From Terriglobia bacterium (GTDB lineage: Bacteria; Acidobacteriota; Terriglobia; JAIQFV01), in assembly GCA_020072965.1 (NCBI GenBank), contig JAIQFY010000006.1:1-64000 (forward strand): a DNA stretch of 64,000 bases, in the 5' to 3' direction. Each line of letters starts with the position of its first letter. The stretch's first letter is position 1. The position numbers were made by a program, and so were the translations under genes. Below, in pieces: positions 7,230 to 36,458 of this stretch. The notes beneath the pieces are model-generated. The model saw nothing but the letters and a program-made list of their open reading frames with translations, was not told the origin of the DNA and searched no databases.

Positions 7230-8159
7230 AACACCGATGTGTACATGAGCTTTCGCTCATCCAGATGGCGTTCTACAAGGCAACGGTGTCCCTTCAAATC
7301 GTTGAATCAAACGACAAGCTTCGAAAGCTGGAACTGCTCCGATGCGCCTCCATCGAACATCCGCTTTTTAGGAACTTCAATGACGCGCCCTTGTGCCTTT
7401 TCTTGGTCGATTCTTAGGGGTCTTTAGGTGGGGTAAATTTTGGAGTAAGAAATTCACGCTTAAGGTTAGTGCCACGACTCCGCTACCCTCTGGCTCCAAC
7501 CCCAGAATAAAAGTCTGCCAACATGTGATAATTATCACAACGTCCCTGCCAAAGTCAAGACTCGAGAAATCTTGGCGCCGTCAACGATCCGTGCAGTGGA
7601 AGTCGACCGGAATTCGTCATCTTCCCTTGAAACTATTCCAATGTGAACTAATATTCCAGGATTGTGACAAAATCTTCACGGTCGACACAACTCTCCTTCG
7701 AATTTGTTTACTGGTTGGATTCGGCTCTTCTTACATGAAAGATCAATCGCCCTCAGAACGAATACTGTAAAAATGTGTAGTCCGCGGCATAAGCCGTGGA
7801 GCCGCCAAGCGATTCGTGTTCTCCCCCTTTATGCACCCCGATGAACAAGGCAGTCGAAAAATCAGCATGAGCACGTTCCGATCCGGGAACTTTGTACTCA
7901 TCGCGATTCCATTACTCAGAGTCGTTTCTGCCACCCTTTGAACCAGCTTTGCATCTGCATCCTCAATTGGAATCTAAGCTCAGATCTGCTGAGGTACCAA
8001 TTTTAGGAATTTAGCTTGTTCTCACGGATAGCCGCTTTGGATTCTCTCGATTGAAAGGCCCTGCAAATATCCCGACGCAGCCCACCTCTTGGCCAGAAAT
8101 CACTCCAAACTAATACGAACGCAATTGAAAATGGTACAAATTCGCGCATGATTCAACGT

Positions 8160-11560: not shown

Positions 11561-13633
11561 CTACACTTCTTCCATCAAGACGCGATGGATCTCGGCGACG
11601 CTCCAGGCTTGGGCCAAGCAGCCTTTTCCCGGGGGTCGCGGGGAGCCCTCTTCGGGTGGAGGGACATCACCATCAAAGAGTTCAGGAATCTGGCCCACCC
11701 CTTCGCTCAACATATACTGAATCAGAGGTTCAAGCAGGCTTCGCACGTGCTTCTTATTCCGGGTGGTGCGGGAATGGGCGTTCAAATAAGCTGTGGCGTA
11801 AGGTCCCAGCAGCCACGGCCAGACAGTACCCTGGTGATAGGAGAAATCGCGATCGTAAGCGCTCCCCTGGTACAGGCCCCGATAGTGCGAGTCGTTCTTT
11901 GCCAGTGTTCGAAGGCCGAAAGGCGTCAACAGGTGCTCCGTGACAACCGCCACGACGGGTTTGCGATGCTGTTTTTCAAGGGGGGAGAAGGGTAGCGTCA
12001 TGGCGAATAATTGATTGGGCCGGAGGGACGCATCGATGCCGCTTTCACTGACGACGTCAGACAAATATCCCGCGGCCGGGTTCCAGAAAACCTTGTTGAA
12101 ACTCTCCTGGGCTTGGCGGGCGAGGGAGGTCAATTCCTTGGCCTTTCCCCGGTCACCGAATTTTTTCGCAAAAAATTCCAGCACTTTCAGGGCATTACAC
12201 CAGAGAGCGCAAACCTCAACGGCTTTTCCGTGCCGCGGGGTAACGGCTTGCTCTCCAATCCGGGCGTCCATCCAGGTAAGTTGAACGGATTCCTCTCCGG
12301 CCGAAAGCAGGGCGTCGTCCGACATCCGAATGCCGAAACGCGTTCCCCGGCGGTGGCACTCGAAGCTTTCGATCAGGGCCTCATAGAATCTTTGTTTGAC
12401 GACTTTCAGATCGTCGGTCCGCCGAGCCAGTTCGTACACCAGATGGAAGAGCCAGAGCGTCGCGTCCGCCGTGTTGTATTCGGCTTCTTCTCCCGCCTCC
12501 GGGTGATCCACAAACCGGTTGGGGATCAATCCGTCTCGCATGGAACGAACAAAGGTGCCCAGAATCTCCCGGGCCGCCGGATAATCATCCGTAACAAAGA
12601 GGAGGCCGGGAACTGAAATCATGGTGTCCCGGCCCCAGTCCGTAAACCAGGGATACCCGGCAATGACGGTGGGGGAGTCTTTTTGCCGCCTCACCAGAAA
12701 TTGATCCGCAGCCAACCGGAAGTAGAAAGACGTCTTCTCCGTCGATTTGATTCCCTTCACCAGTCCCTGACGCCGTTCCAGCTCCCGCTGTTTTATCACT
12801 GCGAAGCGTTGAAGCTCGGCCTCTCGAGTCAGGTCAGACCATTCCTCCGCACTGGCAAAGAACCAGAGATGTGTCCCGTTCTTCACGACCGCCCGGAAGT
12901 TTCCCGGGCTGAAGAGATCCTCGGAGAAGTCGAGGCCGCGCTCCTGCTCGCGGAGGTACTCGAAGTTCTTGTACCAGTACCCGTCACGAAAAAAGAAATC
13001 CGCGGTATGGCGAATCACCAAAGGGGGAAGTCCCGGGTAGGGCGAGAATTTCGCGTGATGCTCCCCAATATCGGTGTCCCGCTGGAGGTCACTGTTTTCG
13101 TGGGTCAGAGAATGATAATTCCGATAAGCGAGGAGCGGGCGCATATCAAAGTGGGCCTCCGATTCCTGCGGCCCCGTGAAAGCGTATTCGAGACAGGTGG
13201 CATTGTGTCCGTGAACCATGAAAACAGTCTTCTGGATCTTCCAGTCGCCCACGCGAAAGGTGGCAACGGGGAAGAATAGCTTTTCAAAACGGACCAGGAA
13301 TTGATAGCCCTGGGGATGGATGGCTCCGGGAAACTGGTTGGAACTTAGATCGATCCGGGCGCCTTCGAGCACCAGCGTCTCTTCGAATTTGGAGAGCAGC
13401 ACAAACCGGTTGACTGGGGGGGCGAGCGCCGCCACCAGCAATCCATGATAGCGCCGGGTGTTCATGCCGCACAGGGTAGAGGAGGCAAACCCGCCTAGCC
13501 CATTGGTTTCAAGCCATTCCCGATGTTGGGATCGGGCCAGATTAGAGCACATGTTTTGGTCGAATTTGATCATGATTTTCCATCCATGAAAAAGAGCATG
13601 GTTGAGTCCATGAGAACTCAAGTGTTGGAACAC
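11561..13633 (-). CDS. Glycogen debranching enzyme-like / amylo-alpha-1,6-glucosidase family protein (GDE_N + GDE_C six-hairpin glycosidase)
   Basis: N-terminal NGLGGFASSTLCGMNTRRYHGLL and C-terminal (alpha/alpha)6 region with WMDA, GKAVEVCALW and YHQGTVWPWLLGPY motifs. The likely start is the internal MIKFDQ (~13573). Confidence 0.8.
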   Translation of the reverse strand: MFQHLSSHGLNHALFHGWKIMIKFDQNMCSNLARSQHREWLETNGLGGFASSTLCGMNTRRYHGLLVAALAPPVNRFVLLSKFEETLVLEGARIDLSSNQFPGAIHPQGYQFLVRFEKLFFPVATFRVGDWKIQKTVFMVHGHNATCLEYAFTGPQESEAHFDMRPLLAYRNYHSLTHENSDLQRDTDIGEHHAKFSPYPGLPPLVIRHTADFFFRDGYWYKNFEYLREQERGLDFSEDLFSPGNFRAVVKNGTHLWFFASAEEWSDLTREAELQRFAVIKQRELERRQGLVKGIKSTEKTSFYFRLAADQFLVRRQKDSPTVIAGYPWFTDWGRDTMISVPGLLFVTDDYPAAREILGTFVRSMRDGLIPNRFVDHPEAGEEAEYNTADATLWLFHLVYELARRTDDLKVVKQRFYEALIESFECHRRGTRFGIRMSDDALLSAGEESVQLTWMDARIGEQAVTPRHGKAVEVCALWCNALKVLEFFAKKFGDRGKAKELTSLARQAQESFNKVFWNPAAGYLSDVVSESGIDASLRPNQLFAMTLPFSPLEKQHRKPVVAVVTEHLLTPFGLRTLAKNDSHYRGLYQGSAYDRDFSYHQGTVWPWLLGPYATAYLNAHSRTTRNKKHVRSLLEPLIQYMLSEGVGQIPELFDGDVPPPEEGSPRPPGKGCLAQAWSVAEIHRVLMEEV

Positions 13634-13715
13634 GCGGCAGGCCCAGTTCCTCCTCCCGGTTTCGGGAGATTTCAGGATGAATTTTTCGTCCCTTATGGTA
13701 AACTGGGGAAGCCTT

Positions 13716-13802
13716 ATCCGTCCCGGTCATGGAGGCAAGAGAACGCTGTCTTGGAAACAGCTCATTCTACTTTAAACCCGCAAACCCGTCCATGAATTCA
13801 GG
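13716..13802 (+). promoter_or_regulatory. Conserved non-coding block upstream of pilin cassette 1 (ATCCG..GTCATGGAGGC ... CCGTCCATGAATTCAGG), ~375 nt before the first pilin gene; paralogous to 19204-19285
   Basis: Two conserved sub-blocks are present despite ~40% divergence of the flanking coding genes. The distance to the downstream start codon is almost identical (374 vs 377 nt). Confidence 0.4.
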
Positions 13803-14175
13803 TTTTGCCCAGCCCGGTAGCGATTGAGTTCTGCGGTGATTCCCTTTTTCCCCGAGCGTCGGAGGTGTCGCAACTGCAACCTTCGAAGGGGGGGGCGGAG
13901 TATACGCTTCACAGCTTAACTACGAGGGGGTTCAACTAGGGTAGACGTCAATTTACACCGCGCTGATGTGAGAAAAGTCACAAATTTTGTCACTGTTCGC
14001 TTCACTGTAAAAGGTGTCCGCGGTGGTTGTTGATGGCCCTAAATCCTCGGTATCAAGTTTGGGACGAAATCAAGAGTCACTCCGTCTCGCTGGTTTGTTC
14101 CGGGAGGACGCGGCCTTGGGACAATTTCTTATGTCAGTATGCGGGGCCGAGTGAGTCAGGTACTGTTTCCGAAAA

Positions 14176-14796
14176 TTGAACAAAAAGCGAGCCGACTCTC
14201 TCATGAAGTATTGGGTGAAAGAGCTCATCATAGCGTTCATTGGATCTTGTGGAGCACCGCCTGACCGGAGCGCGGGGCGAAGGCGCTCAAGCGGCGGGTT
14301 TTCATCGCTGGAACTACTCTTCGTCGTCATGATAGTACTCATCATGAGTACCCTGGCTCTCCCGAATATGCTTGAGATGCGCAACAACTACAACTTGCAG
14401 GGCGACTTGCGACTCGTGCAGGTCATGATCCAGACCGGACGTTACAACGCCATTTCACATGGGCGGCAGTATCAGGTTGTTATGCAGACCGATCCCCATC
14501 AGGTTCGGTTGCAGGTGGACGACACGGCTGATCCGCAGGATCCATTGCACGTTCCCAATTTTGTGAATTGTCCGAACGATCAGTATTGTCGGGGCGTGAG
14601 TCCCGTTTCACTCTCGCGAGGCGTACAGTTTGTCAGGGGAGGAACCCTAACGTGCGTTTTCAATGGCAGCGTGACCGGAACGGGGTTTGACACTACCCCA
14701 ACAGGCGAGCCTTATGTGGAAGTAAGAAACAAGAAACATGAGTATCAAGTGGCGGTTTCCCCCCTGGGACGAGTACGCCTCGTGAGGGTTAAGTAA
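14176..14796 (+). CDS. fimT: Type IV pilus minor pilin / pseudopilin, FimT/GspH-like (class III signal peptide)
   Basis: Prepilin motif ...RRRSSGG|FSSLELLFVVMIVLIMSTLAL (G-1, F+1, E+5). The size and C-terminal beta region resemble GspH/FimT. The leader is unusually long, and an internal start at ~14203 is possible. Confidence 0.7.
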   Translation: MNKKRADSLMKYWVKELIIAFIGSCGAPPDRSAGRRRSSGGFSSLELLFVVMIVLIMSTLALPNMLEMRNNYNLQGDLRLVQVMIQTGRYNAISHGRQYQVVMQTDPHQVRLQVDDTADPQDPLHVPNFVNCPNDQYCRGVSPVSLSRGVQFVRGGTLTCVFNGSVTGTGFDTTPTGEPYVEVRNKKHEYQVAVSPLGRVRLVRVK

Positions 14797-14810
14797 CAGA
14801 GGGCATCTCG

Positions 14811-15467
14811 ATGAACTCAGATGTCTTGAAGGGTACCTCAGGCGGAGCAGGATCCGAAGCGAGGCGGCCCATTCGAGCCAACCCTGACCTTGGGTTCTCC
14901 ATTCTCGAGCTGATGATTGCGATTGTAGTCCTGCTTTTCGGCTTCATTGCGATGATCAATTTGATTGCCACGAGCATCGTTGTCAATCGGACTTCCAATC
15001 AGTTGACCTTGCTCACTCTATTGGCCTCCGATAAGCTTGAACAATTGAGGACCCTGGACATCAGCGATCCACAAATACAAGTCCCATCGGGTTCTTTGAA
15101 TGCAGGATCGCTTAATGACGATTCGACCCAGGATGTCGGGGGCACCCGGGTTTCATACTTTGACAACGTTTTTGTCAACCCGCGTGATGGCTCCATCACG
15201 CGCACGGGAGGTCTCGACGGCGAGGGTGAGCACGAGTCCGTCACTCGAACCATGGGAGGGACGACCACCACAACGTCCTCGGATGCTGTGCAGGCGCAGT
15301 TGAGTTATCGCCGAAGGTGGTTGATTCAGAAGGATCCGGCGGTCCTTGCGGGGGCGATCCGGATTACCGTGGAAGTGGCAGTCGGAACAAACACGGGGTC
15401 GGACGCGAACCCCGCCCAGGCCCCCACCGGTGATCGCCAAGTGATCCGTATGACAGCAGTGCGCTGA
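14811..15467 (+). CDS. pilV: Type IV pilus minor pilin PilV-like
   Basis: Prepilin motif ...NPDLG|FSILELMIAIVVLLFGFIAMINL (E+5). It is a paralog of 20285..20971. Confidence 0.7.
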   Translation: MNSDVLKGTSGGAGSEARRPIRANPDLGFSILELMIAIVVLLFGFIAMINLIATSIVVNRTSNQLTLLTLLASDKLEQLRTLDISDPQIQVPSGSLNAGSLNDDSTQDVGGTRVSYFDNVFVNPRDGSITRTGGLDGEGEHESVTRTMGGTTTTTSSDAVQAQLSYRRRWLIQKDPAVLAGAIRITVEVAVGTNTGSDANPAQAPTGDRQVIRMTAVR

Positions 15468-15496
15468 AGAAGCAGGGTAGGGTCAAGACGCCGAGA

Positions 15497-16579
15497 GTGT
15501 TGTCGGCAAAGGTTTCGCAGAGAGTGGGCGATCAGCCATGTCAAATCTTCCTATGTCCCCCAGGCCAGCAATGCCCCATCGCAGTCCCCGGGTATTCCCC
15601 GGGAAAGGACGCCGCACGTCGGGTTAGGTCCGGCTTGGATATGGTCTCGGCCGATCTCGCCAACGCAGGCTCGAACCTGGGCGCGGCAGGGCATGTTGGC
15701 TTTCCATTTCCTGTTATTGTTGAGAAGAACTACAGCCAAACCACTTTTTATCCCACTCCTTACAGCTTTGACAGAATCACTATCTTTCAAGGTATGAATC
15801 CGAACAGCTGCGATTACCTCCCGCCATCGTACCTTAGCGATATGCACGGAACGGGGACAGGGGTGAACAGCTCAGGGCAGACGAGCAACGGCCCGACCTT
15901 GTTCGTTGGGGACGATCAGAATCCAATCCCTTTTCCAAGCTACCCGGACTGTAACGCTGCTTGTAACGCAAGTATGGAGGCCCAATTTCGATGCGCCGCC
16001 AACCGGCTCCCCAGCGGATCTTTTGTTGTGGTCATCAATATTGACCCTAACGATCCAAACTACCGCCAGATTGCACCCATGACTCTGACACAAAACGCGA
16101 GTGTTGATGCTGGCGGTCTTCGAGTCAATCTCAACCACGACCCTCAAGGAGATAGCAGTGGCGGGCTTTATCCCCTGCAACAGGTTCCACGGAACAGGTT
16201 GGGTACGGAATTTCCACGCGGATCCCTGATTGTAAAGTTGGCTCCGCCGATCACTTACTCGGTTGACGTCACTGATCAAGAGCATCCTGTGCTGATCCGC
16301 TCGACGCAGGCCGGCTCAGCCGCAAACCCAACGTCGATCCCCGTGGCAACGAACATCCTCGGTTTCTCGCAGCGGGCCCAACTGCCGACTGGGATCTTCG
16401 ATAATCCGGCGGATTACCTCCCCCAACCGAATGATTTTTCGCTGATTCAGGCCTTGGAGGTGATGGTCGCCGGGAGGACCGAGAGCGGACGCATCGATGA
16501 ATATAAGAGCGCTATCGATCCGACCAGGACGTTTCGGTTGAACACCTTGTCCACAACGACTGCCCTGCGAAACAAATAA
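15497..16579 (+). pseudogene. pilW: PilW-like minor pilin paralog lacking the N-terminal class III signal peptide and hydrophobic helix; probably decayed or non-functional
   Basis: From RVRSGLDMVSADLANAGSNL onward it aligns with paralog 21039..22175. The ~45 aa that carry GFTLLEMLVGIALMVVLGG in the paralog are replaced here by a non-hydrophobic sequence (QIFLCPPGQQCPIAVPGYSPGKD). No frame of 15468-15620 encodes a prepilin helix. Confidence 0.5.
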
Positions 16580-16586
16580 TAGTGAT

Positions 16587-18665
16587 TTGAGGTGTCCCAT
16601 GAAGCCCCCTATATTTTCCCCAGGACCCTATAAGATCGCCCGCCGTGTTCCCTCCAGGCCGGAAGGGGAAAGAGGGATGGCTTTGATCACAGCCCTCATC
16701 TTCCTGGGCGTGGCCATGCTGCTTGGGCTCTCCATCTTGCTCACCACCTCCAGCGACGTGTTCCTCAGTAGTTCGATGCGGAATACCAAGACCGCCTTTT
16801 ACGCCGCCGACGCGGGAGTCAGTGTCATGCGCAAGACCTTAGTGGACGCCTTGAAAGCGCAAACTCCAGCCAGCGGTACGAGCGCAAATACTGTTTTTGA
16901 TTGCTCCGATGATCCTACTTCTGCATTTAACAAATTGATTCTGAACGCGGCGCTGGCGAACGCCGGCAACGGATCGCAACAGACGGTAAGCTCCTACTCC
17001 AGTTATGGGGATTCGGCAGCCGCATTTACGATCGATACACGCAGCGATGGAGCTCAACCCCGCACCTTTTTCAAATGCATCAACCGCGGCAAGGTGACCC
17101 CTGTCCCCATACCACCCGATGCTTCGCACAACGAGACTTACAATTTTGCTTATCAAATTACCTCGAATGGGACGTCGGGGGGCCTTGCCTCCAGCACGGT
17201 CATTGAGCAGGGGACCATTTCGTACAACTTCAATGTCAATGTCAGTCAGCCGCTCTACTTTTTATCAGGGTTTGGAATGTTGCTAAACAATTTTGATCCC
17301 CACAATCCGCCCGGACCGCTTCCTTCCGGCAGGTACACTGGACCTGCTCACACCAATGGAGAATGGGGATTCACGAATGACCCCCCCGGCTACTATGAAT
17401 TCACTGACCAGATCAGCAGTGTCAGCCCGAATGCATATTACGTTTTCGCCGGACCGCCTCCCTTTTCGGAGGACGTCCCGAAGAGTACCGATACCCATAC
17501 GACCGGAAGAATTGCGCCCATATACGATGCCGGGTCAGGGGTCAATTTCGGAGCGGCGAGCGTGCAATTTCCGACGGATTCAAGTAACCAGCTCCACGCC
17601 GTGATTGATGGCTCCGGCTACAATGCCAGCAGTCCTTTCGCACCACAGGCAGGCCTCTCGGACCCTGATTTCCAAACCGCGATGCACAACACACTGGTGG
17701 CCGCCAACAGTTCGCCCTATAACGGCGCCAACGGGGTATACATCCCCGTATCCGTGTCGCGGGATCGGAATGGGAACCCCCTGTCCTGGCAGACCAGGGG
17801 CGGCGGGATTTTCGTCAATGGAAACGTCGATAACCTGACACTGGATGCGCGAACACCGGGATTACAGATCTATATCATCGTCCAGGGCGGACTCACCACG
17901 ACCCTCACTTATAACCTGAACGCGCGGACAACAACGATTCAAAGTGGGGCCTCTTCATTCACGGCTCCGGGATTGCCGACAAATAATCTTCCTTTCCGCA
18001 GTCCGGGTCAGCGTACCTCCCCTGCGACCTCGATTTCGTTCTATGTCAATGGGTCGATCAGCAGCATGCACGGACCGGTTGATGCTTCGGGACAGCAACT
18101 GAATGATGCGGTTACGAAACTACCGATGCCTGGCGTGCAAGATGGCGCCGCCGTGACCATCACCGCGACAGGGGATGTGGAGGTCACGGGGAGTGTGCTT
18201 TACCGTAGTGCTCCTGTGACGACGGCACCAGCAAACACCGCCGGAACCCTCATCCCGGCCAACGACTACGGCCAGGCGCTTGGAATTTACTCCCAAACCG
18301 GGAACATCTATCTTAATGTCGACCATATCCCCTCCCATAATATTGAAGTCGATGCGGCGCTGGCAGCTGTGCACGGAACAGTGACCTGGTCTGGTACGAC
18401 TCGACCCCCAAACGTGACGATCATCGGAGGACGCGTCCAGAACCAACCCGGGTCTATGGGGATCCAGAATACCGTGTTGTTCGATCGGCGCTTTGGGGCC
18501 GGTTTGTATGCTCCGCCGTTCTTTCCGTATATCAATGCATCGAATTTTGCTTTGGCGGGCGCCACCTATGCATTTGCGGTGGTGTGTACCCCCGCGCCCT
18601 GTTTGCCCAAGGCCGTCCCCACGAGCTATTCCGTCCCCTCGCGAATGGTGGCCCCGGCACAATAG
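16587..18665 (+). CDS. pilX: Large PilX-like minor pilin (PilX_N-type N-terminus plus ~600-aa C-terminal region), putative pilus-tip/adhesin component
   Basis: N-terminus ...ERGMALITALIFLGVAMLLGLSILLTTSSDVFLSSSMRNTKTAFYAADAGV matches the PilX N-terminal domain pattern (G-aLi.aLi.L.v..LLg...........s.....AF.AAeAG). It is 692 aa, against ~200 aa for canonical PilX. It is a paralog of 22193..24307. Confidence 0.65.
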   Translation: MRCPMKPPIFSPGPYKIARRVPSRPEGERGMALITALIFLGVAMLLGLSILLTTSSDVFLSSSMRNTKTAFYAADAGVSVMRKTLVDALKAQTPASGTSANTVFDCSDDPTSAFNKLILNAALANAGNGSQQTVSSYSSYGDSAAAFTIDTRSDGAQPRTFFKCINRGKVTPVPIPPDASHNETYNFAYQITSNGTSGGLASSTVIEQGTISYNFNVNVSQPLYFLSGFGMLLNNFDPHNPPGPLPSGRYTGPAHTNGEWGFTNDPPGYYEFTDQISSVSPNAYYVFAGPPPFSEDVPKSTDTHTTGRIAPIYDAGSGVNFGAASVQFPTDSSNQLHAVIDGSGYNASSPFAPQAGLSDPDFQTAMHNTLVAANSSPYNGANGVYIPVSVSRDRNGNPLSWQTRGGGIFVNGNVDNLTLDARTPGLQIYIIVQGGLTTTLTYNLNARTTTIQSGASSFTAPGLPTNNLPFRSPGQRTSPATSISFYVNGSISSMHGPVDASGQQLNDAVTKLPMPGVQDGAAVTITATGDVEVTGSVLYRSAPVTTAPANTAGTLIPANDYGQALGIYSQTGNIYLNVDHIPSHNIEVDAALAAVHGTVTWSGTTRPPNVTIIGGRVQNQPGSMGIQNTVLFDRRFGAGLYAPPFFPYINASNFALAGATYAFAVVCTPAPCLPKAVPTSYSVPSRMVAPAQ

Positions 18666-18690
18666 GTCAAGTCCCCCAAGGGTGGAGTGT

Positions 18691-18789
18691 GGGGCACCGG
18701 GGTGCTTTATTAAGATATAATCCGAGAGCCTGGGGCCGAAGCAGACTGGTGCCCCGTTAATGCCCTGCCGAGTTGGTTAGAAACCTCCT
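18691..18789 (+). other. Conserved structured non-coding element 3' of pilX-like gene 1: 9-10-bp GC helix (GGGGCACCGG ... CTGGTGCCCC) enclosing a ~45-nt loop, followed by a GGTTAGAAACCTCCT mini-hairpin; paralogous to 24332-24432
   Basis: Both copies are alignable over ~100 nt. The closing helix carries a G.U versus G-C difference between copies (G/T in copy 1, G/C in copy 2), consistent with RNA-level conservation. Confidence 0.4.
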
Positions 18790-19203
18790 CCGTGCCTCGA
18801 CGGCGGTGTCCGCATGCTCCCGGCACCATTCCTCACCTTCTGCGACACCCCATACGCCGATCGCGAACGCCACCACTTCGAACACCTCCCCGAACCTCTT
18901 ACCGCTGAAAACGTATTTCCTCACATCCCCCGGCGCTACAGATTCCAGGCCGACTTCCGATTCCTGTACCTCCCCATGTCAAATCAACAACCCTAAAAAA
19001 AATCTCTGCCGCGGCGGATCACCGGGACCACTAAAACTATTGGATTCGATCACGATATTTCATCAGTGAATGAGGGGTCTGTGAATCCACCAGCGGCGCA
19101 TACGTTGGAGCCTGGCTGGAGGCAGCAGTCAACTTCCCGCGCTGCCCGGAGAATTCGGGATGAGTCCCTCTTCATATAATGATAGACAAACGAGGTTTTT
19201 TTC

Positions 19204-19285
19204 ATCCCGATCATGGAGGCGAAATGACACTGCACTGGATAAAACTAATTCTACTTCAATTCCGTTCCCCGTCCATGAATTCAGG
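19204..19285 (+). promoter_or_regulatory. Conserved non-coding block upstream of pilin cassette 2 (paralog of 13716-13802)
   Basis: ATCCCGATCATGGAGGC ... CCGTCCATGAATTCAGG, 377 nt upstream of the first pilin gene. Confidence 0.4.
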
Positions 19286-19661
19286 ATTCACTTGGCCCAG
19301 TAACGACTGAATCCCGCGGTTGACCAGCTTTCTTTCCCGCAGTTCGAGGTTTCAATCATGGGACCTTCGAGAGTGGGAGCGGCATCTTCCCCTCGCAGCA
19401 ACAACCGCATGGGGATTCAAAATTCCTGGGGGTTCGTTTTCAAACAGATTTGTGATCGACGTCACAATCTTCGCCATGGATTTCACTACTCTAAGAAGTG
19501 CCTCGGTGAACGATAATGACCCCATTGTCTTCTTCGCAGATCGGGAATGAACAAAACTCGCACACGGAAACACGTGTTTAATCCGGTGCGACATGTTTTT
19601 GTAACAATAGTATTCGAAGCTATATCTTGCCAGTTGAGTCGGATGGTGTCTGCAAAGAGAG

Positions 19662-20270
19662 GTGGGCAAAGAAATGAATAACGGAGACGGTTTTCCCATG
19701 AAACAGTTAGTCGGGGGGATCAATGCCAGGGTCAGTGGGCCTTCCGGGGCGCGGCGGGGTCTCCGCCAGAGGCGTTTAAATCACGGCTTCTCGGTGATAG
19801 AGATGGTCATCGTCGCCTCGCTGGCGCTCACAGTCGGATCGATTGTTCTGCCGCATTTAGGTCAGATGCGAGAGAATTTCAACATACAGGGCGACATTCG
19901 GGTCGTCCAGACCACCATTCAGAGCACACGGTACAATGCCATCGCACAAGGCCGGCAATATCAAATCGTATTTCAGACGGTTCCGAGTCCCCAGTTGCAG
20001 GTCATGATGGATAATTCACCCAATCCCCAGGAGCCCCCTCCTCACGCGCCGGTTTGGGTAAACCGGGGAGCCCCCGTTCCCCTGTCTCGAAGTGTGCAGC
20101 TTGCCAAGGGAGGGAGCCTGGTGTGTGACTTCAGTGGCACTGTGACCTCTACTGGCTTTGACGTTGACCAGGGCGAGCCATACCTGGAGATGTCGAATAG
20201 CAAGACGGGGAGAGACTATTCTGCGTTCGTTTCAGTGCTGGGGCGTGTGCGCATTGTTCAGAACCACTAG
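19662..20270 (+). CDS. fimT: Type IV pilus minor pilin / pseudopilin FimT/GspH-like, copy 2
   Basis: ...RRLNHG|FSVIEMVIVASLALTVGSIVLP prepilin motif. It is a paralog of 14176..14796 (QGDxRxVQxxIQxxRYNAIxxGRQYQxV conserved). An internal start at ~19698 (MKQLVGG) is possible. Confidence 0.7.
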   Translation: MGKEMNNGDGFPMKQLVGGINARVSGPSGARRGLRQRRLNHGFSVIEMVIVASLALTVGSIVLPHLGQMRENFNIQGDIRVVQTTIQSTRYNAIAQGRQYQIVFQTVPSPQLQVMMDNSPNPQEPPPHAPVWVNRGAPVPLSRSVQLAKGGSLVCDFSGTVTSTGFDVDQGEPYLEMSNSKTGRDYSAFVSVLGRVRIVQNH

Positions 20271-20284
20271 AGTGGGGCATTCTT

Positions 20285-20971
20285 ATGAGCACAAATCATT
20301 CAAACAGTACTGCTGCTTTTCATCCTGTGACACCCCGGTGGCCAGTGCGCATCCGAATGGAGCGAGGCTTTTCCATCCTCGAACTCATGATCGCTCTGTT
20401 TGTGCTGTTGTTCGGGTTCATTACGATGGCCAATCTGATTGCCACTAGTGTCGTTGTGAACCGGTCCTCCAATCATCTGACATCCATCGCCCAACTGGCA
20501 TCAGAAAAGCTGGAAGAAATACGTGCCTTGGACGCCACGGATCCGCGTGTTTACCCTGCGATCCTGTCCGGCAGCCCCGGCGCCCCGGTGACGGGAGGAT
20601 CACTCACTGGAGATGTGACCACCCCGGTCAACGTGGGGGGTGTTAACTATACCATTTCATATTTCGACGTGGTTTACGTCAACCAACGGGACGGTTCCAT
20701 CACGCGGACGGCTGGGCCAGACGATACCGGTAACTTTAGTTCCGAGACCACTTCGCTTGACGGTGCAACGACTCCCCCCGCTGCCTCCGGTAATGAGCCA
20801 ACTCAGTTGAGTTATCGGCGGCGGTGGACCATTGAGAGCAATACCCCCATTAATGGGGCGACTCAGATCACGGTGGAGGTCGCCGTCAAGACGAACAAGT
20901 TGTCGGACCCCGATCCCCCGGCGACACTGAATAATTTTAGGCAAGTGATCCGAATGCGAACTATCCACTAG
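20285..20971 (+). CDS. pilV: Type IV pilus minor pilin PilV-like, copy 2
   Basis: ...RMERG|FSILELMIALFVLLFGFITMANLIATSVVVNRSSN. It is a paralog of 14811..15467. Confidence 0.7.
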   Translation: MSTNHSNSTAAFHPVTPRWPVRIRMERGFSILELMIALFVLLFGFITMANLIATSVVVNRSSNHLTSIAQLASEKLEEIRALDATDPRVYPAILSGSPGAPVTGGSLTGDVTTPVNVGGVNYTISYFDVVYVNQRDGSITRTAGPDDTGNFSSETTSLDGATTPPAASGNEPTQLSYRRRWTIESNTPINGATQITVEVAVKTNKLSDPDPPATLNNFRQVIRMRTIH

Positions 20972-21038
20972 AGAGACGGCGTGGGTTGGCAAGAAGATGG
21001 GCGCCGGGCTCTCTATCTTCGCGAAAAGTGAGTGAGTC

Positions 21039-22175
21039 ATGATGCTGAATGATTTGATCTCTTCAAAAGTTGACTGGCACCAGCGGAATTCCATGCCATG
21101 CCTCAGGCGAGGGCGCCGCTCATCCGGCTTCACCCTTCTGGAAATGTTAGTCGGGATTGCCCTCATGGTGGTTCTGGGCGGGATGGTGTTTGGGCTGTTT
21201 AACAAGCATGCCACGGTCTACAAGCTTCAACAAGAGGTCACTGAACTGAATCTAGGCCTGCGCTCCGGACTGGAACTGATCTCGGCCGATTTGTTGAATG
21301 CAGGCGCCAACCTCTCCGCCGGAGGTTCCCAAAGATTTCCGTTTCCCGTCATGGTCGGTAAGAATGCGAATGGGAACTTTGATTCGATAACTGTTTACCA
21401 AGGGTACAAACAGGACAATGCACTTAACTACGTTTCTCCTACCACCCTGACCAAATTGACCGGGATTGATCCGGGGGTGCCTATTCCGATCAACAACACA
21501 GCGACCTTGTATCTCAATCCTGCACCCGGATTAACCGCAGCTCAGACCGCTGCGTTGCTCCCCGCCGGTGCCTACATCGTCATCGTGAACACGGACACCA
21601 GCGATCCAAACTATGGCCAGATCGCTCCGCTCACCCTGGCAGGTGGGTCGATCGCCTCCAATTGTGGGGCCAGCCCCTGCGTCCAGATCAGCACCACTGG
21701 AGGTCTGGATAACGGATCTGGATTGGTTGGTACCGGGCAGGGCGATGGGGTCGCCCCGGCCAAGCTCGGGACTTCCTTTCCTTTCGGGGCGATGGTCGTG
21801 AAACTGGCTCCCAGGGTGACTTACTTGGTGGATACTGCGATCGATCCGGTCCGACCCGCGTTGGTCCGGACGACAACGACTGCGGCCGGGGAGTCACGCC
21901 TCCAGTTGGTCTCAAACCTCCTCAGTTTCTCGCAACGCGCTCGGATGGCGACGGGGACATTTAATAATCCGGACGACTACACAGGAATTGATCCCCTGGG
22001 AAACCTGGTTGCCATGCGTAGGGATTTTTCACTGATACAATCCGTGGAAGTGACCATTGCGGGAAGAACCGCGACTGATCGTATCGATCGGTACCAAAGT
22101 GCCATTGATCCAACCAAGACCTTTCGACTGAATACTTTAACCACCGTGGTTGCGCTCCGTAATAAGGTTAACTGA
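21039..22175 (+). CDS. pilW: Type IV pilus minor pilin PilW-like, copy 2 (intact class III signal peptide)
   Basis: ...RRGRRSSG|FTLLEMLVGIALMVVLGGMVFGLF; the C-terminal region is homologous to 15497..16579. Confidence 0.7.
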   Translation: MMLNDLISSKVDWHQRNSMPCLRRGRRSSGFTLLEMLVGIALMVVLGGMVFGLFNKHATVYKLQQEVTELNLGLRSGLELISADLLNAGANLSAGGSQRFPFPVMVGKNANGNFDSITVYQGYKQDNALNYVSPTTLTKLTGIDPGVPIPINNTATLYLNPAPGLTAAQTAALLPAGAYIVIVNTDTSDPNYGQIAPLTLAGGSIASNCGASPCVQISTTGGLDNGSGLVGTGQGDGVAPAKLGTSFPFGAMVVKLAPRVTYLVDTAIDPVRPALVRTTTTAAGESRLQLVSNLLSFSQRARMATGTFNNPDDYTGIDPLGNLVAMRRDFSLIQSVEVTIAGRTATDRIDRYQSAIDPTKTFRLNTLTTVVALRNKVN

Positions 22176-22192
22176 CGAATTGAGGTGCCATT

Positions 22193-24307
22193 ATGAAGCA
22201 GGACAAGATCTCCCGTGGATTTCGAAATCTCAAGCATCGCCTGCATTCCAAGGGCAGGGACAAAAACGGAGTGGCCCTGATTACGGCCCTCATCTTCCTG
22301 GGTGTGACCATGCTTCTGGGACTCTCCATCATGCTCACCACGTCCAGTGACGTTTTCATCAGTGGTACCATGCGGAATTCGAAAACCGCCTTTTACGCTG
22401 CGGACGCCGGAATCAGTGTGATGCGGACTGCCCTGGTGAACGAGATCAAGACCCGGACGCCGAGAAATCTGGTCAACGGCACGGACCCTGTTTTTCCATG
22501 CCCCGATGCGACCTTTGACACAGCCGTCCTAACCGCGGCGCTCGGAAACGCGGGAAACGGCAACGCACAAACAGTGAGCTCGTATTCCACCTACGGCGAT
22601 TCACCCGCCAGGTACACGATTGACACGACCAGCCCCGGAGGGCAGCCCCGTACCTCGTTCAGTTGCACTCTGAGGGAAGCTACGGCTGGACCTTTCCCGC
22701 GGTTTGAACGTTATACTTTTGCCTATCAAATTACCGCGAATGGGGGCGTCCCAGGCGCGGCCGCTGATCTGGCCCAAAGCACCGTCATCGAAAAGGGAAC
22801 TATTACCTACAACGCAGAAGTCATCCAAACTGACCATCCCACCGATTACTGGAACCTGCTTTTCTCCTTCGCGGGATATGGGATGTTTATAGACCATTAC
22901 GATCCCCACAACGGGTCAACCCTCCTGCATGGAACCATTACGGGCCGTGTTCATACCAACGGGGAATGGGGATTCTCAACAGGCAATCCGAATTATGTCT
23001 TTACAGATCAAGTGAGCAGCGTCAACCAGAACGCGTGTTACTACTTCAACAGCTGTGTGGACCGCAACGCGAATTCCGTAACCCAAAATGGGCAGACGGT
23101 TGCACCGGTGTTTATGTCGGGCTTTTCACGCGGTGTGCAGAGTGTTTCATTGCCAGAGAATTCCAACAGCCAGTCACGCGCCGTGATCGACGGTTCGGGC
23201 ATTGACATGGCCGCGCTCACAGATCCCAGCCGGGATCCGAATTCTTCCGTGCCTGCTCCGCCAGCGCCCACTGCGGCGGAGTTGAGCGCAAATCTGAGGA
23301 ATGCAAACGGAACCGCATTTGGTGGCGGTAATGGCGTGTACGCCCCCATCCAGATCCAAAGTGACGACGGACGCGGGCATATCACATACAGGACTACAGG
23401 CGCTGGGGTCTATGTGAACGGAAACGTCACGGACATGACCCTGGATGCGAGAACTCCGGGACTGCAGATCTACACGATTAATCAGGGCGGGACTGTCTCA
23501 ACGGTCACCTATAATCTAACCCCTGGCACCGCCATCAACGGTTACCCTCCACTATCGACTACGCTCCAAAGCGGAGGGAGATCCATCACCTCGTCGGGGT
23601 TGCCTACGAATGTCAATCCTGTCAATCCCAATCGGCCTGCCTCACAGCAGCCCGCAGCCTCTATCTCTTTGTATGTGAATGGGGCGATCAATAGCTTGCA
23701 TGGCCCGGGTCCAGGACTACCGGGAGTGCAGGATAGCGCCGCAATGACCATTACAGCGACGGGAAATATTACTATCACTGGGGACTTGGATTATCACACC
23801 AGGCCAGTGACGACGACGCAGGGTCAAGTGGCGCCCGGCGTCCCTCCCAATAGCCCCCCGGGAACCCTCATTCCAAGCAACGACAATGGCCAGGCTCTCG
23901 GAATCTACACTTCCACAGGAAACATCTACATCGACGTCAGTGGTATTCAGTCCCGGAACATCGAGATTGATGCTTCCATGGCCACACTGAGCAATGGAGG
24001 GAATGGAGGTATTACGGTGGGAGGCGGAGTCAATGCGAGCAACATAACGATCGTGGGAGGCCGCATCCAGAATAACATCATGGTGTTGGGCAATTCCAGT
24101 ACGGTTCGCAACGTCTTGTTTGATCGCCGGTACGCAAATAGTGCCTACGCCCCGCCGTTCTTCCCGAGTACCAATGCGGCGGCGATACGCGGCACCGACC
24201 ATACCTTTACCTATCCTGTGGCCGCGGATCCCAACTCTCTGAGGGCCGTGGCTACCAGTTACGTCGTGCCCTCGCGGTTGCTCACGGCGGCGAATGCCGG
24301 CCAATAA
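22193..24307 (+). CDS. pilX: Large PilX-like minor pilin, copy 2 (704 aa)
   Basis: ...KNGVALITALIFLGVTMLLGLSIMLTTSSDVFISGTMRNSKTAFYAADAGISVMR. It shares C-terminal motifs with copy 1 (HTNGEWGF, GNIY.NVD, YAPPFFP). Confidence 0.65.
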   Translation: MKQDKISRGFRNLKHRLHSKGRDKNGVALITALIFLGVTMLLGLSIMLTTSSDVFISGTMRNSKTAFYAADAGISVMRTALVNEIKTRTPRNLVNGTDPVFPCPDATFDTAVLTAALGNAGNGNAQTVSSYSTYGDSPARYTIDTTSPGGQPRTSFSCTLREATAGPFPRFERYTFAYQITANGGVPGAAADLAQSTVIEKGTITYNAEVIQTDHPTDYWNLLFSFAGYGMFIDHYDPHNGSTLLHGTITGRVHTNGEWGFSTGNPNYVFTDQVSSVNQNACYYFNSCVDRNANSVTQNGQTVAPVFMSGFSRGVQSVSLPENSNSQSRAVIDGSGIDMAALTDPSRDPNSSVPAPPAPTAAELSANLRNANGTAFGGGNGVYAPIQIQSDDGRGHITYRTTGAGVYVNGNVTDMTLDARTPGLQIYTINQGGTVSTVTYNLTPGTAINGYPPLSTTLQSGGRSITSSGLPTNVNPVNPNRPASQQPAASISLYVNGAINSLHGPGPGLPGVQDSAAMTITATGNITITGDLDYHTRPVTTTQGQVAPGVPPNSPPGTLIPSNDNGQALGIYTSTGNIYIDVSGIQSRNIEIDASMATLSNGGNGGITVGGGVNASNITIVGGRIQNNIMVLGNSSTVRNVLFDRRYANSAYAPPFFPSTNAAAIRGTDHTFTYPVAADPNSLRAVATSYVVPSRLLTAANAGQ

Positions 24308-24331
24308 AGAGAATCACCCCGCGTCGAAATT

Positions 24332-24432
24332 GGGGCACCGAGTATGCTTTGTTTGAACATGATCTCAGAGCATGTGGCTGAAGCAGACCGGTGCCCCGAC
24401 AATTTCCCTCCCCATTTGGTTTGAAACCTCCT
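24332..24432 (+). other. Conserved structured non-coding element 3' of pilX-like gene 2 (GGGGCACCG ... CGGTGCCCC helix + GGTTTGAAACCTCCT); paralog of 18691-18789
   Basis: See the entry for 18691-18789. Confidence 0.4.
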
Positions 24433-24463: not shown

Positions 24464-24488
24464 GTAGGGGTGCACAGACGTGCACCCC
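24464..24488. repeat. REP-like palindrome, family 2 variant (GTAGGGG-TGCACAGACGTGCA-CCCC)
   Basis: 5' GTAG hallmark plus GC-rich imperfect palindrome. It forms an inverted pair with 24509-24537. Confidence 0.55.
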
Positions 24489-24508
24489 CGGAAATCATTT
24501 AGACCCCA

Positions 24509-24546
24509 GGGGGCGCACGTCTGTGCGCTCCTACCCCCCTTTTTTT
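24509..24546 (+). terminator. REP-like palindrome (GGGGGCGCACGTCTGTGCGCTCCTACCCCCC) followed by T7: probable intrinsic terminator for pilin cassette 2
   Basis: GC-rich stem-loop immediately followed by TTTTTTT (24540-24546) on the coding strand of the upstream operon. Confidence 0.5.
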
Positions 24547-33049: not shown

Positions 33050-34705
33050 TCACCGTGATAGGTTTGAACTGACCTTGGAAGGGGTGCTCAAATCGACTGC
33101 CGGGGATCCTGGTCTGGATCCCGGGCGTGATTCTCCGGACATTGGAGAGGCCACCTGTGACCGGCCGCCCACGCCGACTTTGCGGGCTGTGGATTCATTC
33201 AAGATATCCAATTCGCACTCGCTCCGGGCGAGAACCTCTTTCCACATGTGCTCATTGTAGACGCAGCCGGGGTCACCCGCCTGGACATCCCCCGTATAGC
33301 TTTCGGCCCGGGCGCGACAGCCTCCGCAGAAGAATCGATAGTCACAGACGCCGCAATGGTCGCCGCGATCATCCCGGTCGCTCAGGATCGCTTCCAGGGG
33401 TTGGTTCCAGATCTCCGCGAAAGAAGATTTGCGAAGGTCGCCGATGGTCCGGGTCGGCATGTAGACGCACGGGTTGACCTGACCGTTGGGCTGGATGGAA
33501 CAATAGCAGCGATGTGCCCCGCAGCCGCCGATGTACTTGGAGACCACGCGCGCTTCCTGCCCCCGGCCGGAGCCGCCATGTCCCATCGCCATCATGCCCT
33601 CAGGATCGCCAAACATCAGACAGGCCCTCCCGAATTGAGGCGCCGTCGACATGACGCTTATCTTTCCTTCGTTCAAGGTCTGCTGAAGGAGTCTCAATAA
33701 CGCTTCGCGTTGCGAGGGCGACATGTCTTCGTGAGCCATTTCCACACCCCGTCCAACAGGGATGAAGTTGAAATGGACAAAAGTGTTTGCGCCGAGTGAA
33801 ACCGCGAGGTTGATCATTTCCCGTGCCTGCGCGACGGTGTCCCGGGTGAAACAACAGGCAATTCCGCATCGCATCCCCGCCGCACTCACATTCTTGATTC
33901 CCTCAATGGACCGGGCCCAGGCGCCCTTCGACTGGCGAAAGTCATCGTGGATGGAAGGATCCACAGAATCCAACGAGACCTCCACGTACTTAACCCCCAG
34001 GGAAGCGAGACGCTCGCAGGTGCGGGGTGTGAGCAGGGTTCCGTTGGTTGCGAGCGTCGCATATACCAGCTTTTGCCGGGCTCGTTCCAACACCGCCCAC
34101 ACGTCGGGGTCGACCAGTGGCTCACCGCCCGCCAGGGCGATCAAGGGAACGAGGTTTTCTGAAAGCTGGTCCACCACGGCCAACTTCTCGGCCCGGTTCA
34201 GCTCGTCGGAGCCCCGCTTGTGAATCGCGTCCTGATAACAGTGCTTGCAGGACAGGTTGCAGGCGTTGGTAATGTTCCAAACCACGAGCAAGGGAGAGAT
34301 GAATCGCTGGGGGGTCAGCAGACCGTGGATCGCCACCGAACGAGCGGTGTTCAGCAGCGTCCGCGTTGTGGGCCAGTGATGAAAGACCTTTTCCACGGCA
34401 CGCTCGGGCGAAATCCGTGTCTTGGCAACAAAGTAATCGATGGCTTTGTGGACCGGGGCATACTTGATCTTCTCATAGAGAGAGGCGTCGGGATTGCGGT
34501 AGGAATAAAAGATATTTTCCATGGGCGTGTGCCCATTGGGGCCCTTCGTCAAGTGCTTCAGGATCCTCCGGGTAACGGGATGGTTGAGGTACCTCTCAAA
34601 GTCGTGGGGAGTGGGGGGAGCCGCCTGGGTCAGTTTGGGAACGTTTGGCCGCTTGGCGGTCTTGATGCGAGTGCCGTCAGGGGTATACATAGCGGGAAAA
34701 TCCAT
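33050..34705 (-). CDS. Radical SAM enzyme with C-terminal SPASM-type auxiliary cluster motifs and a ~130-aa N-terminal extension
   Basis: CNLSCKHCY (CX3CX2C) core and G-rich SAM motif (LAGGEPL). Downstream motifs GGCGAHRCYCSIQPNGQVNPC and CGVCDYRFFCGGC resemble SPASM-type auxiliary-cluster motifs. It has a low-complexity ~60-aa C-terminal tail. Confidence 0.8.
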   Translation of the reverse strand: MDFPAMYTPDGTRIKTAKRPNVPKLTQAAPPTPHDFERYLNHPVTRRILKHLTKGPNGHTPMENIFYSYRNPDASLYEKIKYAPVHKAIDYFVAKTRISPERAVEKVFHHWPTTRTLLNTARSVAIHGLLTPQRFISPLLVVWNITNACNLSCKHCYQDAIHKRGSDELNRAEKLAVVDQLSENLVPLIALAGGEPLVDPDVWAVLERARQKLVYATLATNGTLLTPRTCERLASLGVKYVEVSLDSVDPSIHDDFRQSKGAWARSIEGIKNVSAAGMRCGIACCFTRDTVAQAREMINLAVSLGANTFVHFNFIPVGRGVEMAHEDMSPSQREALLRLLQQTLNEGKISVMSTAPQFGRACLMFGDPEGMMAMGHGGSGRGQEARVVSKYIGGCGAHRCYCSIQPNGQVNPCVYMPTRTIGDLRKSSFAEIWNQPLEAILSDRDDRGDHCGVCDYRFFCGGCRARAESYTGDVQAGDPGCVYNEHMWKEVLARSECELDILNESTARKVGVGGRSQVASPMSGESRPGSRPGSPAVDLSTPSKVSSNLSR

Positions 34706-34802
34706 CCTCCACGTTGGTGCCTAGCCGGGGATTTTCCCTGGGGAGGCCCGGGGACTTACTTGATCAAGGCCGGCGAGCCACCGGCCTTGACAAATTCTGC
34801 GT

Positions 34803-36458
34803 CTAATGTGAGCCATTCTTTTTGAACGGCACCGAGTACTTCTTCTCAATCATTTCCCTGAACGTCGGCCCGGAATTGTAGGCACAGAAGGGGTAAATGA
34901 GGCCGTTGGGCGCGGCATAATGGATGATGCAGCGCTTCACGCGCTCGACGTCGTAATTGTAGGAATCCATGAAGTGCATCCCGGCCACCATCAGCGTCCT
35001 GTAAGTGAATGTGCCGTCCTTGCCGCCTCGGCCGTATTTCTTGTCGGTCATCCCTTGCAGGGTCTGCAGGAACTTGGGGAAAGTCAACCCTTTGGGGGCG
35101 TACTCTGGTTTGAAGTACTTTTGCAGGGATTGCCATACCTTGATCTTGGTAAAGAACTTGAAAGTGGCTCGGTTCGTCTCCCGTGAAATGGTGTCGACCG
35201 TCTGCAGCATAGCGCCGATGTCAACAAAACGGGTGATCGGCACGGCTTCCTTGCGGTCTTCGCTCACGAACAGATAGGTGCCGATGGAGCAGTGAGGATG
35301 GCTGGTCAACTGGGTGGTTTCCTCGCCTTTGATGGCACTCAGCAGCTTAGAAAACGGCGTGACGCATGACAGCGGGAACCAATCCTCATAGCGATTCGCC
35401 AGCCCGGTCTGCTCCTCGACGCATCGCGCCACATCCGTCATCGTAAATCGCTTGGCTTCCCGTTCCCGCTTAGCAATTCGTCCGGTAAAGGTGACCGGCT
35501 GGAAGCTGATCGCGCTCGTGCAATCCACGTTTTCAATGGCCAACTTGATGATGTCGCCGATCTGGTGATCGTTCAGCCCCTTTACGATGGTGGGGACAAA
35601 ACAAATCTTCAGGCTGGCTTTTCGGCAATTTTCGATGACCTTGAGTTTCTGCTCATACAGGGATTCACCGCGCGTGCGCTTGTAAATGTCGTCGCAAACG
35701 CCGTCGAATTGCAGATACAAGGTATGCAAACCGGCCTCTTTGGCCGCCATCGCGAAATCCAGGTCGAGGAACTTGATGCCATTGGTGGCCGCCTGGAGGT
35801 GGGAGAACCCCATTTCCGCGGCCATGCGGAGGATCTCCAGGAACCGGGGGTGAAGCGTCGGTTCGCCGCCCGAGAACTGAACTACCCGGCAGGCGACGGG
35901 CCGCTCGTTGCGCAGCGCCTGCAACATCGTCCGGACGTGCTCCAGGGAGGGTTCATAAAGGTAGCCCGACGCATTGGCATTGGCAAAACAGACCGGACAG
36001 GTCAGATTGCACCGGTTTGTGAGATCGACGTTCGCCAGACCGGTATGGGAGGTGTGCATGGAGCACAAACCACACTGTTCGGGGCATCGTGTGGCACTGG
36101 GAATTGCAGGGTTAGAAACTCCCCGGTTGTCACCGAAGTGCCAGCGCTCCATTTTCAGGTACATCTTGGCGTCGGAGTAACAGACATCCTTGACGTATCC
36201 GTGCTCGGGGCAGGTCTTCTCCATCATGACCTTGCCGTCCTCTTCGAACACCAGGGCGTCAATCAGCTTTGTGCACTCCGGGCAAAGGGACTGGGTCACC
36301 TTCGGCAATCCCACATGGGGCGGGTCAATGCGCGCGCCCGTGTAAGTCGTCTTAGGCTGAATGATCTGGTGGGCTGTAAATTGAAACCGATCCTCTTTTT
36401 CCTCTGCCGACGGCAGGTCGATGGTCTGGGGTTGGTCCTGAATTGTCTGTGTACTCAC
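34803..36458 (-). CDS. Multi-cluster radical SAM enzyme with an N-terminal Cys3His zinc-ribbon/rubredoxin-like element; tetraether-lipid-synthase (Tes / GDGT-MAS)-like candidate
   Basis: GTG start preceded by GAGGAGGAG. CPEC...CPEH ribbon, an extra CX3CX2C (RCPEQCGLC) and the canonical radical-SAM CX3CX2C (NRCNLTCPVCF), GGEPT, and a ~250-aa C-terminal domain. The Tes assignment is by remembered architecture, not by search. Confidence 0.7.
   Translation of the reverse strand: MSTQTIQDQPQTIDLPSAEEKEDRFQFTAHQIIQPKTTYTGARIDPPHVGLPKVTQSLCPECTKLIDALVFEEDGKVMMEKTCPEHGYVKDVCYSDAKMYLKMERWHFGDNRGVSNPAIPSATRCPEQCGLCSMHTSHTGLANVDLTNRCNLTCPVCFANANASGYLYEPSLEHVRTMLQALRNERPVACRVVQFSGGEPTLHPRFLEILRMAAEMGFSHLQAATNGIKFLDLDFAMAAKEAGLHTLYLQFDGVCDDIYKRTRGESLYEQKLKVIENCRKASLKICFVPTIVKGLNDHQIGDIIKLAIENVDCTSAISFQPVTFTGRIAKREREAKRFTMTDVARCVEEQTGLANRYEDWFPLSCVTPFSKLLSAIKGEETTQLTSHPHCSIGTYLFVSEDRKEAVPITRFVDIGAMLQTVDTISRETNRATFKFFTKIKVWQSLQKYFKPEYAPKGLTFPKFLQTLQGMTDKKYGRGGKDGTFTYRTLMVAGMHFMDSYNYDVERVKRCIIHYAAPNGLIYPFCAYNSGPTFREMIEKKYSVPFKKNGSH

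Follow-up and report, generated by a model that had tools for sequence, protein, structure and literature searches.

The closest described counterparts of the element that we report here are the following. The protective or processing 3'-UTR stem-loops: these include the REP stabilisers and the hairpins setting the mature 3' ends of transcripts whose termination depends on Rho. The 3'-UTR-derived small RNAs: these are either processed from mRNAs, as in the case of CpxQ and SroC, or transcribed from promoters of their own, as in the case of DapZ and MicL. The anti-Shine-Dalgarno element: this is found in the 3' UTR of the icaR gene of Staphylococcus aureus. The non-coding sequences of the Neisseria pilin loci: these feature a Sma/Cla repeat 3' of the loci and, reportedly, an antisense RNA at the pilE locus. 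Finally, the sigma-54 (RpoN) promoters: it is on these that the expression of type IV pilin genes classically depends in other phyla. To our knowledge, there is almost no characterised RNA regulation in the Acidobacteria.

The element lies in a stretch of 64,000 nucleotides from a Terriglobia bacterium, hereafter the window, to which strain-level contigs are identical. This contains two tandem cassettes of type IV minor-pilin-like genes on the same strand. Cassette 1 (14176-18665, + strand) has four minor-pilin-like genes coding for 206, 218, 360 and 692 aa, recognized from their ORFs and Pfam matches to N_methyl and PilX_N; cassette 2 (19662-24307, + strand) has four paralogous genes coding for 202, 228, 378 and 704 aa, recognized in the same manner. 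The PilX_N domain is found in the last gene of each cassette (692 and 704 aa), and the two PilX paralogues share 46-52% identity. Alignment of one cassette with the other delimits a duplicated segment at ~13630-18790 and ~19110-24432, with the similarity between the cassettes ending at the motif CCTCCT. Immediately 3' of both pilX-like genes are the two copies of the element, at 18679-18789 and 24320-24432. The original prediction, made from the window alone, was of two alignable copies of ~100 nt persisting despite the divergence of the neighbouring genes, and this is borne out: the copies are 71-80% identical, against ~55% for the flanking genes. When the cassette-wide alignment is scored per 60 nt, the same 71-80% is seen for the element as opposed to mostly 35-65% for coding sequence, and only the region coding for the N-terminal helix of PilX exceeds it (83%). 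Aligned pairwise, the two copies share 76% of the positions across 59 nt and 85% across 27 nt. The core GAAGCAGACYGGTGCCCCG has exactly two matches in the window, at 18738 and 24380, versus 0.06 expected.

The original prediction further proposed a search for homologues, and genome, metagenome and protein searches recovered five further copies from four related Terriglobia metagenomic lineages, every one of them directly 3' of a pilX-like gene; searches with the PilX protein gave the same small set. There are hence seven distinct copies in five lineages, all in the same orientation as pilX: three of the cassette-1 type and four of the cassette-2 type. The Terriglobia MAG L001 has a single cassette with the element, as do the mutually identical L002, L003 and L004; L010 possesses tandem cassettes with both element types, and L011 a copy of the cassette-1 type. 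More distant pilX homologues are without the element: this holds for L005, which is syntenic and 63% identical, as well as for L006-L009, L012, L013, L094 and L095. A covariance model of the seven copies, also part of the proposed search, found both window copies (18679-18767 at 89.9 bits; the cassette-2 copy at 103.8 bits) but no further ones in 605 kb of loci; hence, the element is single-locus and narrowly distributed. A scan of metagenomes with a DNA pattern likewise returned no further copies, and a protein-guided metagenome scan returned one close locus, L014, which retains only the first dozen or so bases of the element, corresponding to the 5' arm region. This peat or soil metagenome contig displays a third tandem-cassette arrangement (2951-3250): an upstream pilX-like gene, 64% identical to the cassette-2 PilX, precedes no more than the initial part of the element, CCCCCCAAGGTGGACTAGGGCACCGACCG, and ~300 nt further on another cassette begins. 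Across the window, no Rfam 15 family matched at gathering thresholds, and the E-value mode recovered only weak matches to generic hairpins (AS-traG, 15.6 versus 58 bits; CLRN1-AS1, 14.7 versus 48).

Several distinct parts can be recognized in the element. The original prediction of a 9-10-bp GC helix in both copies stands: in the cassette-1 stem-loop (18689-18757, + strand), GGGGCACCGG (18691-18700) pairs with CTGGTGCCCC (18746-18755), the interior being degenerate, and in the cassette-2 stem-loop (24330-24399, + strand), GGGGCACCG (24332-24340) pairs with CGGTGCCCC (24389-24397), with U-A and U.G extensions. The helix was, however, thought to close a loop of ~45 nt; this 'loop' is instead part of a long irregular stem-loop, with an inner TGCTTT/GAAGCA helix formed in cassette 2 by 24345-24350 and 24380-24385. 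On the 3' side of the apical region is the 17-mer ATCTCAGAGCATGTGGC (24362-24378), which is identical in all four cassette-2 orthologues, whereas the 5' side facing it varies. Alignment of the seven copies also reveals a universal core, GAAGCAGACTGGTGCCCCG in cassette 1 (18738-18756) and GAAGCAGACCGGTGCCCCG, an exact core match, in cassette 2 (24380-24398), with 16-19 of its 19 bases identical throughout. The 17-nt segment and the 3' strand of the helix are the most conserved parts of the element. Beyond the core is a tail: in cassette 1 this comprises GGTTAGAAACC and CCTCCT (18775-18789), at the end of the duplicated segment, and in cassette 2 a CU-rich stretch with GGTTTGAAACC and CCTCCT (24400-24432), 49% of whose columns are invariant. 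The terminal GGTTWGAAACC hairpin followed by CCTCCT that had been described is indeed present in both window copies and in L001, but it is altered in the cassette-2 copies of L002 (GATCTGAAACCCACT) and L010 (AGTTTGAACCCTCC) and absent from the cassette-1 copies of L010 and L011.

The conservation of the cassette-2 copies is pronounced. Across the four orthologues, 79% of the columns of the hairpin (24330-24399) are invariant, compared to 57-62% in adjacent coding sequence and 13-23% in other intergenic sequence, and high conservation starts and stops at the helix ends. Nowhere in the 1.5-kb alignment are 40 columns better conserved than in the stretch 24358-24400. This is despite the synonymous sites of pilX being saturated among the same four orthologues (pS 0.56-0.68), with ordinary intergenic DNA barely alignable. 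Hence, the cassette-2 element is under strong purifying selection. In cassette 1 the situation is different: between the window and L010 or L011 the entire 1-kb intercassette spacer is ~75-80% identical, and only the 3' 33 nt of the element rise above this. The elements of the two cassettes form separate clades and both types coexist in L010; the cassette duplication is therefore, judging from these clades, old. The original prediction had named a very recent duplication as one of the circumstances that would undo it; this, as well as recent gene conversion, is ruled out as the source of the similarity by the separate clades and the presence of both cassettes in L010. Together, these observations support the element being a real, selectively maintained and non-repetitive feature 3' of pilX-like genes, with homologues in other genomes.

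The predicted fold is markedly stable in one of the two groups of copies. The cassette-2 copy of the window has a z-score of -3.65 and its orthologues -4.37, -4.24 and -5.16 (0/200 shuffles each). The cassette-1 copies, with z-scores of -1.10, -0.46 and -1.94, do not go beyond composition-matched shuffles, the window copy (-1.10; 27/200 shuffles) being no more stable than chance. The original prediction that conservation bears on structure rather than on sequence is not upheld by the comparisons, which rest on seven copies in two paralogue groups: the RNAalifold covariation term across the seven is close to zero (+0.27; 35-42/500 shuffles). While 90% of the cells are paired, only two pairs show two-sided changes, and two of the cassette-1 orthologues have a disrupted helix. 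The difference of G.U versus G-C on which the prediction had leaned is real (A4, columns 39-88) but one-sided, and thus not compensatory. One pair reads G-C, A.C and A-U across orthologues (A6, columns 22-69), and another changes from U-A to G.U between the paralogue groups. The outer arms of the cassette-2 copies never vary and are therefore uninformative on covariation. In the cassette-1 copies of L010 and L011, three to four of the ten outer pairs are broken without compensation (A.C, A.G, G.G), and yet 18-19 of the 19 bases of the 3' strand are identical; therefore, the conserved unit is not simply the helix. Sequence is conserved at least as much as pairing, and the invariance of the 17-mer and the 3' strand points to sequence-specific recognition.

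The two strands of the element are not equivalent. The U.G and G.U pairs of the + strand at A6 columns 12-79, 31-61 and 21-70 would be A.C mismatches on the - strand; the z-score is -3.65 on the + strand versus -2.40 on the - strand, and the covariance model scores 87-104 bits versus 13-27. Given this asymmetry in G.U pairs, z-scores and model scores, folding predictions favour a sense-strand RNA over a DNA palindrome.

The sequences flanking the element differ between the cassettes. Cassette 2 ends in a REP-type palindrome with a T-run (24464-24545, + strand), likely its intrinsic terminator, at which place the orthologues carry different palindromes. Palindromes of the GTAGGGGYG family are scattered over the window, with 15 matches versus 2.3 expected. 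These REP-like palindromes, GTAGGGGYGYVC, occur as inverted pairs at gene ends, the cassette-2 terminator being one member, with sites at 24464/24523, 27385/27405/27455, 28398/28418, 29504/29524, 39831, 39880/39896 and 59412. The cassette-1 element is followed by a C-rich, G-poor tract of ~220 nt (18780-19000, + strand; GC skew -0.27 to -0.48), which is conserved in L010 and L011 and in which a terminator scan found no terminator-like site. The tract resembles a Rho-utilisation region; right after GCCCTG, the window is without ~51 nt that are present in L010 and L011. Further away, ~9 kb from the cassettes, the minus strand codes for a pair of neighbouring radical-SAM paralogues, both 551 aa long (33050-36458), of which the ORF at 33050-34705 also matches SPASM and that at 34803-36458 also a Zn-ribbon HMPTM domain; no link between this pair and the element was seen.

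At the other end of the cassettes are two conserved blocks (13716-13802 and 19204-19285), which the original prediction had taken as a sign of conserved non-coding function at an equal distance from the first start codons. The blocks do exist, ~460 nt before the first starts, and are also found in orthologues, but they are better explained as a co-duplicated divergent-promoter region facing the upstream gene, with minus-strand matches to TGGACG-N17-TAGAAT (13792-13764) in cassette 1 and TGGACG-N16-TAGAAT (19275-19248) in cassette 2. Besides this sigma-70-like site, the blocks have a conserved TCATGGAGGCGA and look like the promoter or leader of the divergent upstream gene, which is of the glycogen-debranching type (GDE family; 11561-13633, minus strand). 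The CRP-type palindrome TGTGA-N6-TCACA occurs exactly at 13967-13982, 19451-19466 and 7524-7539 (three in the window versus 0.05 expected). Its first two sites are in the same relative position, ~200 nt before the first gene of each cassette, and are kept in L001, L002, L005 and L010; a -10-like TAtAAg is ~25 nt downstream of the palindrome. This motif probably marks a CRP/Vfr-like activated promoter of the operon.

The explanation that best fits the element, to which we accord a little short of an even chance, is a cis-acting stem-loop with a sequence-specific core, formed by the sense strand within the 3' UTR of the operon mRNA for the minor pilins. It builds on the observed position, purifying selection, fold stability and strand bias of the element. 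By this explanation, the element would be transcribed within the operon mRNA, starting ~25 nt past the stop codon of the pilX-like gene and, in cassette 2, lying ~65 nt ahead of the predicted intrinsic terminator. The resulting irregular hairpin of ~70 nt, which includes the invariant 17-mer in its apical region and the core in its 3' strand, could be recognized in a sequence-specific manner by a partner RNA or a protein. It might either block 3'-to-5' exonucleolytic decay of the operon mRNA or mark a processing site for the release of a 3'-UTR-derived small RNA that would end at the shared terminator (24464-24545). The cassette-2 copy would be the functional one, and that of cassette 1 an old, decaying paralogue which keeps the 3' core while losing the helix. 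Against a 3'-UTR hairpin speaks the conservation of the loop, which equals that of the stem: a plain protective hairpin would not need this. The lack of real covariation, the uncompensated breaks in the outer helix of the L010 and L011 cassette-1 copies and a codon-like periodicity in one frame of the cassette-2 orthologues likewise count against it.

Of the known systems, the protective and processing stem-loops resemble the element in being, like it, stable hairpins of the sense strand placed between an operon's last ORF and the termination region; like the hairpins of Rho-terminated transcripts, the cassette-1 copy precedes a C-rich, G-poor tract in place of an intrinsic terminator. However, protective stem-loops are conserved in structure or are generic repeats, whereas the element has an invariant 17-nt apical segment and 3' strand and is confined to a single locus; moreover, in cassette 2 a separate REP-type terminator already follows it. 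With the 3'-UTR-derived small RNAs it shares the organization of a conserved block between a stop codon and a shared terminator, the spacer being much less conserved, but its conserved block extends upstream of any internal start. The window copies, ending in CCUCCU, could pair with GGAGG as in icaR; an anti-Shine-Dalgarno role as the core function is rejected, since CCTCCT is not kept in L002 or in the cassette-1 orthologues. A search for RNA duplexes between the element and the 5' UTR returned only meaningless full-length duplexes. As in Neisseria, the copies of a variable type IV pilin locus each have a conserved non-coding sequence 3' of them; the element is, however, not similar in sequence to its Neisseria counterparts, its paralogous copies show no gene conversion, and no minus-strand promoter-like site was found in it.

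A rather unlikely alternative is that the cassette-2 element is coding. It would then specify either a small protein of 21-26 residues, (MLxxx)M/I-ISEHVAEADRCP[DE]NFPPxLV, or a short in-frame read-through extension of PilX, and the hairpin would be an overlaid translational control. The candidate small ORF MLCLNMISEHVAEADRCPDNFPPHLV (24344-24424, + strand) has an internal ATG at 24359 and ends at a TGA (24422-24424) in frame with the pilX stop. In the cassette-2 copies, the frame after the pilX stop reads ...GAPxML...(M/I)ISEHVAEADRCP(D/E)NF.P.LV; it is open from the pilX stop to the TGA, which is conserved in position, in three of the four orthologues, and from the internal ATG in the fourth, with the TGA kept in all four. 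In the 14-codon core, each of the five substitutions affects codon position 3; for the stretch as a whole, the variable columns are distributed 9/6/19 by codon position (p = 0.017; 3-4 sequences only), and pN/pS is 0.33-0.45 in this frame versus 0.8-3.1 in the other two. The distance from the pilX stop to the ATG is kept at 51, 51, 51 and 54 nt via different indels, and in L002 an upstream ORF of five codons ending in ATGA overlaps the internal ATG. However, there is no start codon common to all copies (the internal site reads ATA in L001, and the upstream ATG of L002 is out of frame), neither ATG is preceded by a Shine-Dalgarno sequence such as the neighbouring genes have, and both ATGs are buried in a hairpin of -36 to -42 kcal/mol. 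Between the paralogues the core changes at codon position 1 with the third positions fixed, and the cassette-1 copies display no periodicity (3/5/4) and lack a start or the shared stop. The 'synonymous' rate of the ORF frame (pS 0.30-0.36) is half that of pilX, and the small ORF has no Pfam or NCBIfam match.

The third-position pattern would fit a minus-strand shadow frame equally well; this 79-aa ORF has stops in L001 and L002, and a homology search with it found nothing. Another minus-strand small ORF, MGREIVGAPVCFSHML, is preceded by AGGAGG in the window but has lost its ATG in L001, L002 and L010; indeed, on neither strand is any ORF with a start codon consistently open across the copies. 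An ancestral C-terminal extension of PilX is rejected, because the AANAG[HQ] C-terminus of PilX is common to homologues with and without the element. More specifically, we consider it very doubtful that ribosomes translate the region between the pilX stop and the TGA at 24422-24424, be it as a read-through product or as a coupled peptide of 21-26 residues (ISEHVAEADRCP...), with the overlapping hairpin as the gate.

It is also improbable, with only a slight chance, that a sigma-54-type promoter, GGCAC-N5-ATGCT, occupies the 5' half of the element. The element would then be a 3'-embedded small-RNA gene with a promoter of its own, from which either a ~190-nt small RNA or a leaderless ORF would be expressed between ~24359 and the downstream terminator. 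The match GGGCACCGAGTATGCT (24333-24348, + strand) has the correct GG-N10-GC spacing known from sigma-54 pilin promoters, and this spacing, along with GGCAC and TGC, is kept in all four cassette-2 copies, with the variable columns of the 5' half confined to the spacer and the -10 to -1 stretch. The predicted start is the A of the ATG at 24359, where the invariant sequence begins, as would be expected of small RNAs with 5' seed regions. Nevertheless, the match differs from those promoters in being downstream of the operon, of chance-level quality and overlapping a helix arm: it departs at two positions from the consensus TGGCAC-N5-TTGCW, and such matches number 26 in the window versus 30 expected. 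The cassette-1 copies have GG-N9-GC (window) or AG (L010), no upstream activator site was identified for the match, and the neighbouring ORFs scanned include no gene for an enhancer-binding protein or AAA+ activator. A promoter would also leave the perfect complementarity of the 9-10-bp arms unexplained, the 5' arm then being untranscribed.

There is similarly little likelihood that the element acts at the level of DNA, as an inverted-repeat site for a regulator or recombinase, or as a flank promoting recombination or exchange of pilin cassettes. Such a site would be in keeping with the perfect 9-10-bp inverted repeat and a core that is invariant whether paired or not. It would also suit the location, where a duplicated and rapidly evolving pilin cassette ends whose 5' side is likewise bordered by conserved blocks, as well as the retention of only the 5' arm region in L014. 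However, the two strands differ in structure, G.U pairs being confined to one of them; the ~57 bp between the centres of the arms would be an unusual spacing for an operator; and the elements of cassettes 1 and 2 bear no sign of recent gene conversion. Cross-species conservation exceeds the needs of a recombination substrate, sequence inspection found no attC core sites, and no recombinase gene is present among the neighbouring ORFs checked.

The remaining candidates are not favoured: an intrinsic terminator, as what comes after the hairpin is GACAAUUUCC in cassette 2 and GUUAAUGCC in cassette 1 rather than a U-tract, and a scan of both strands found no terminator-like site at the element; an integron attC site, as inspection revealed neither RYYYAAC at the 5' end nor GTTRRRY in the cassette-2 copies, which have GACAAT, and the GTTAATG of cassette 1 does not fit; a dispersed REP or MITE repeat, as there are only two pilX-linked copies in 64 kb and none elsewhere in 605 kb of loci; a SECIS element, which is rejected, the stop codons being TAA, TAA, TGA, TGA and TAG; and a DGR hairpin, which seems unlikely, there being no reverse transcriptase among the ORFs checked.

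The known range of the element is a handful of uncultured Terriglobia, and 3'-UTR hairpins are a familiar class; the general significance of the finding is therefore limited, unless coding or read-through were to be confirmed. If the latter were true, it would represent a recoding or small-protein module attached to a gene of the type IV pilus tip complex in the Acidobacteria. If, on the other hand, the element is a functional 3'-UTR RNA, it would be the first post-transcriptional element proposed for the type IV pilus minor-pilin operons of the Acidobacteria, and a clean case of a 3'-UTR element that has been kept through an ancient duplication of a cassette.
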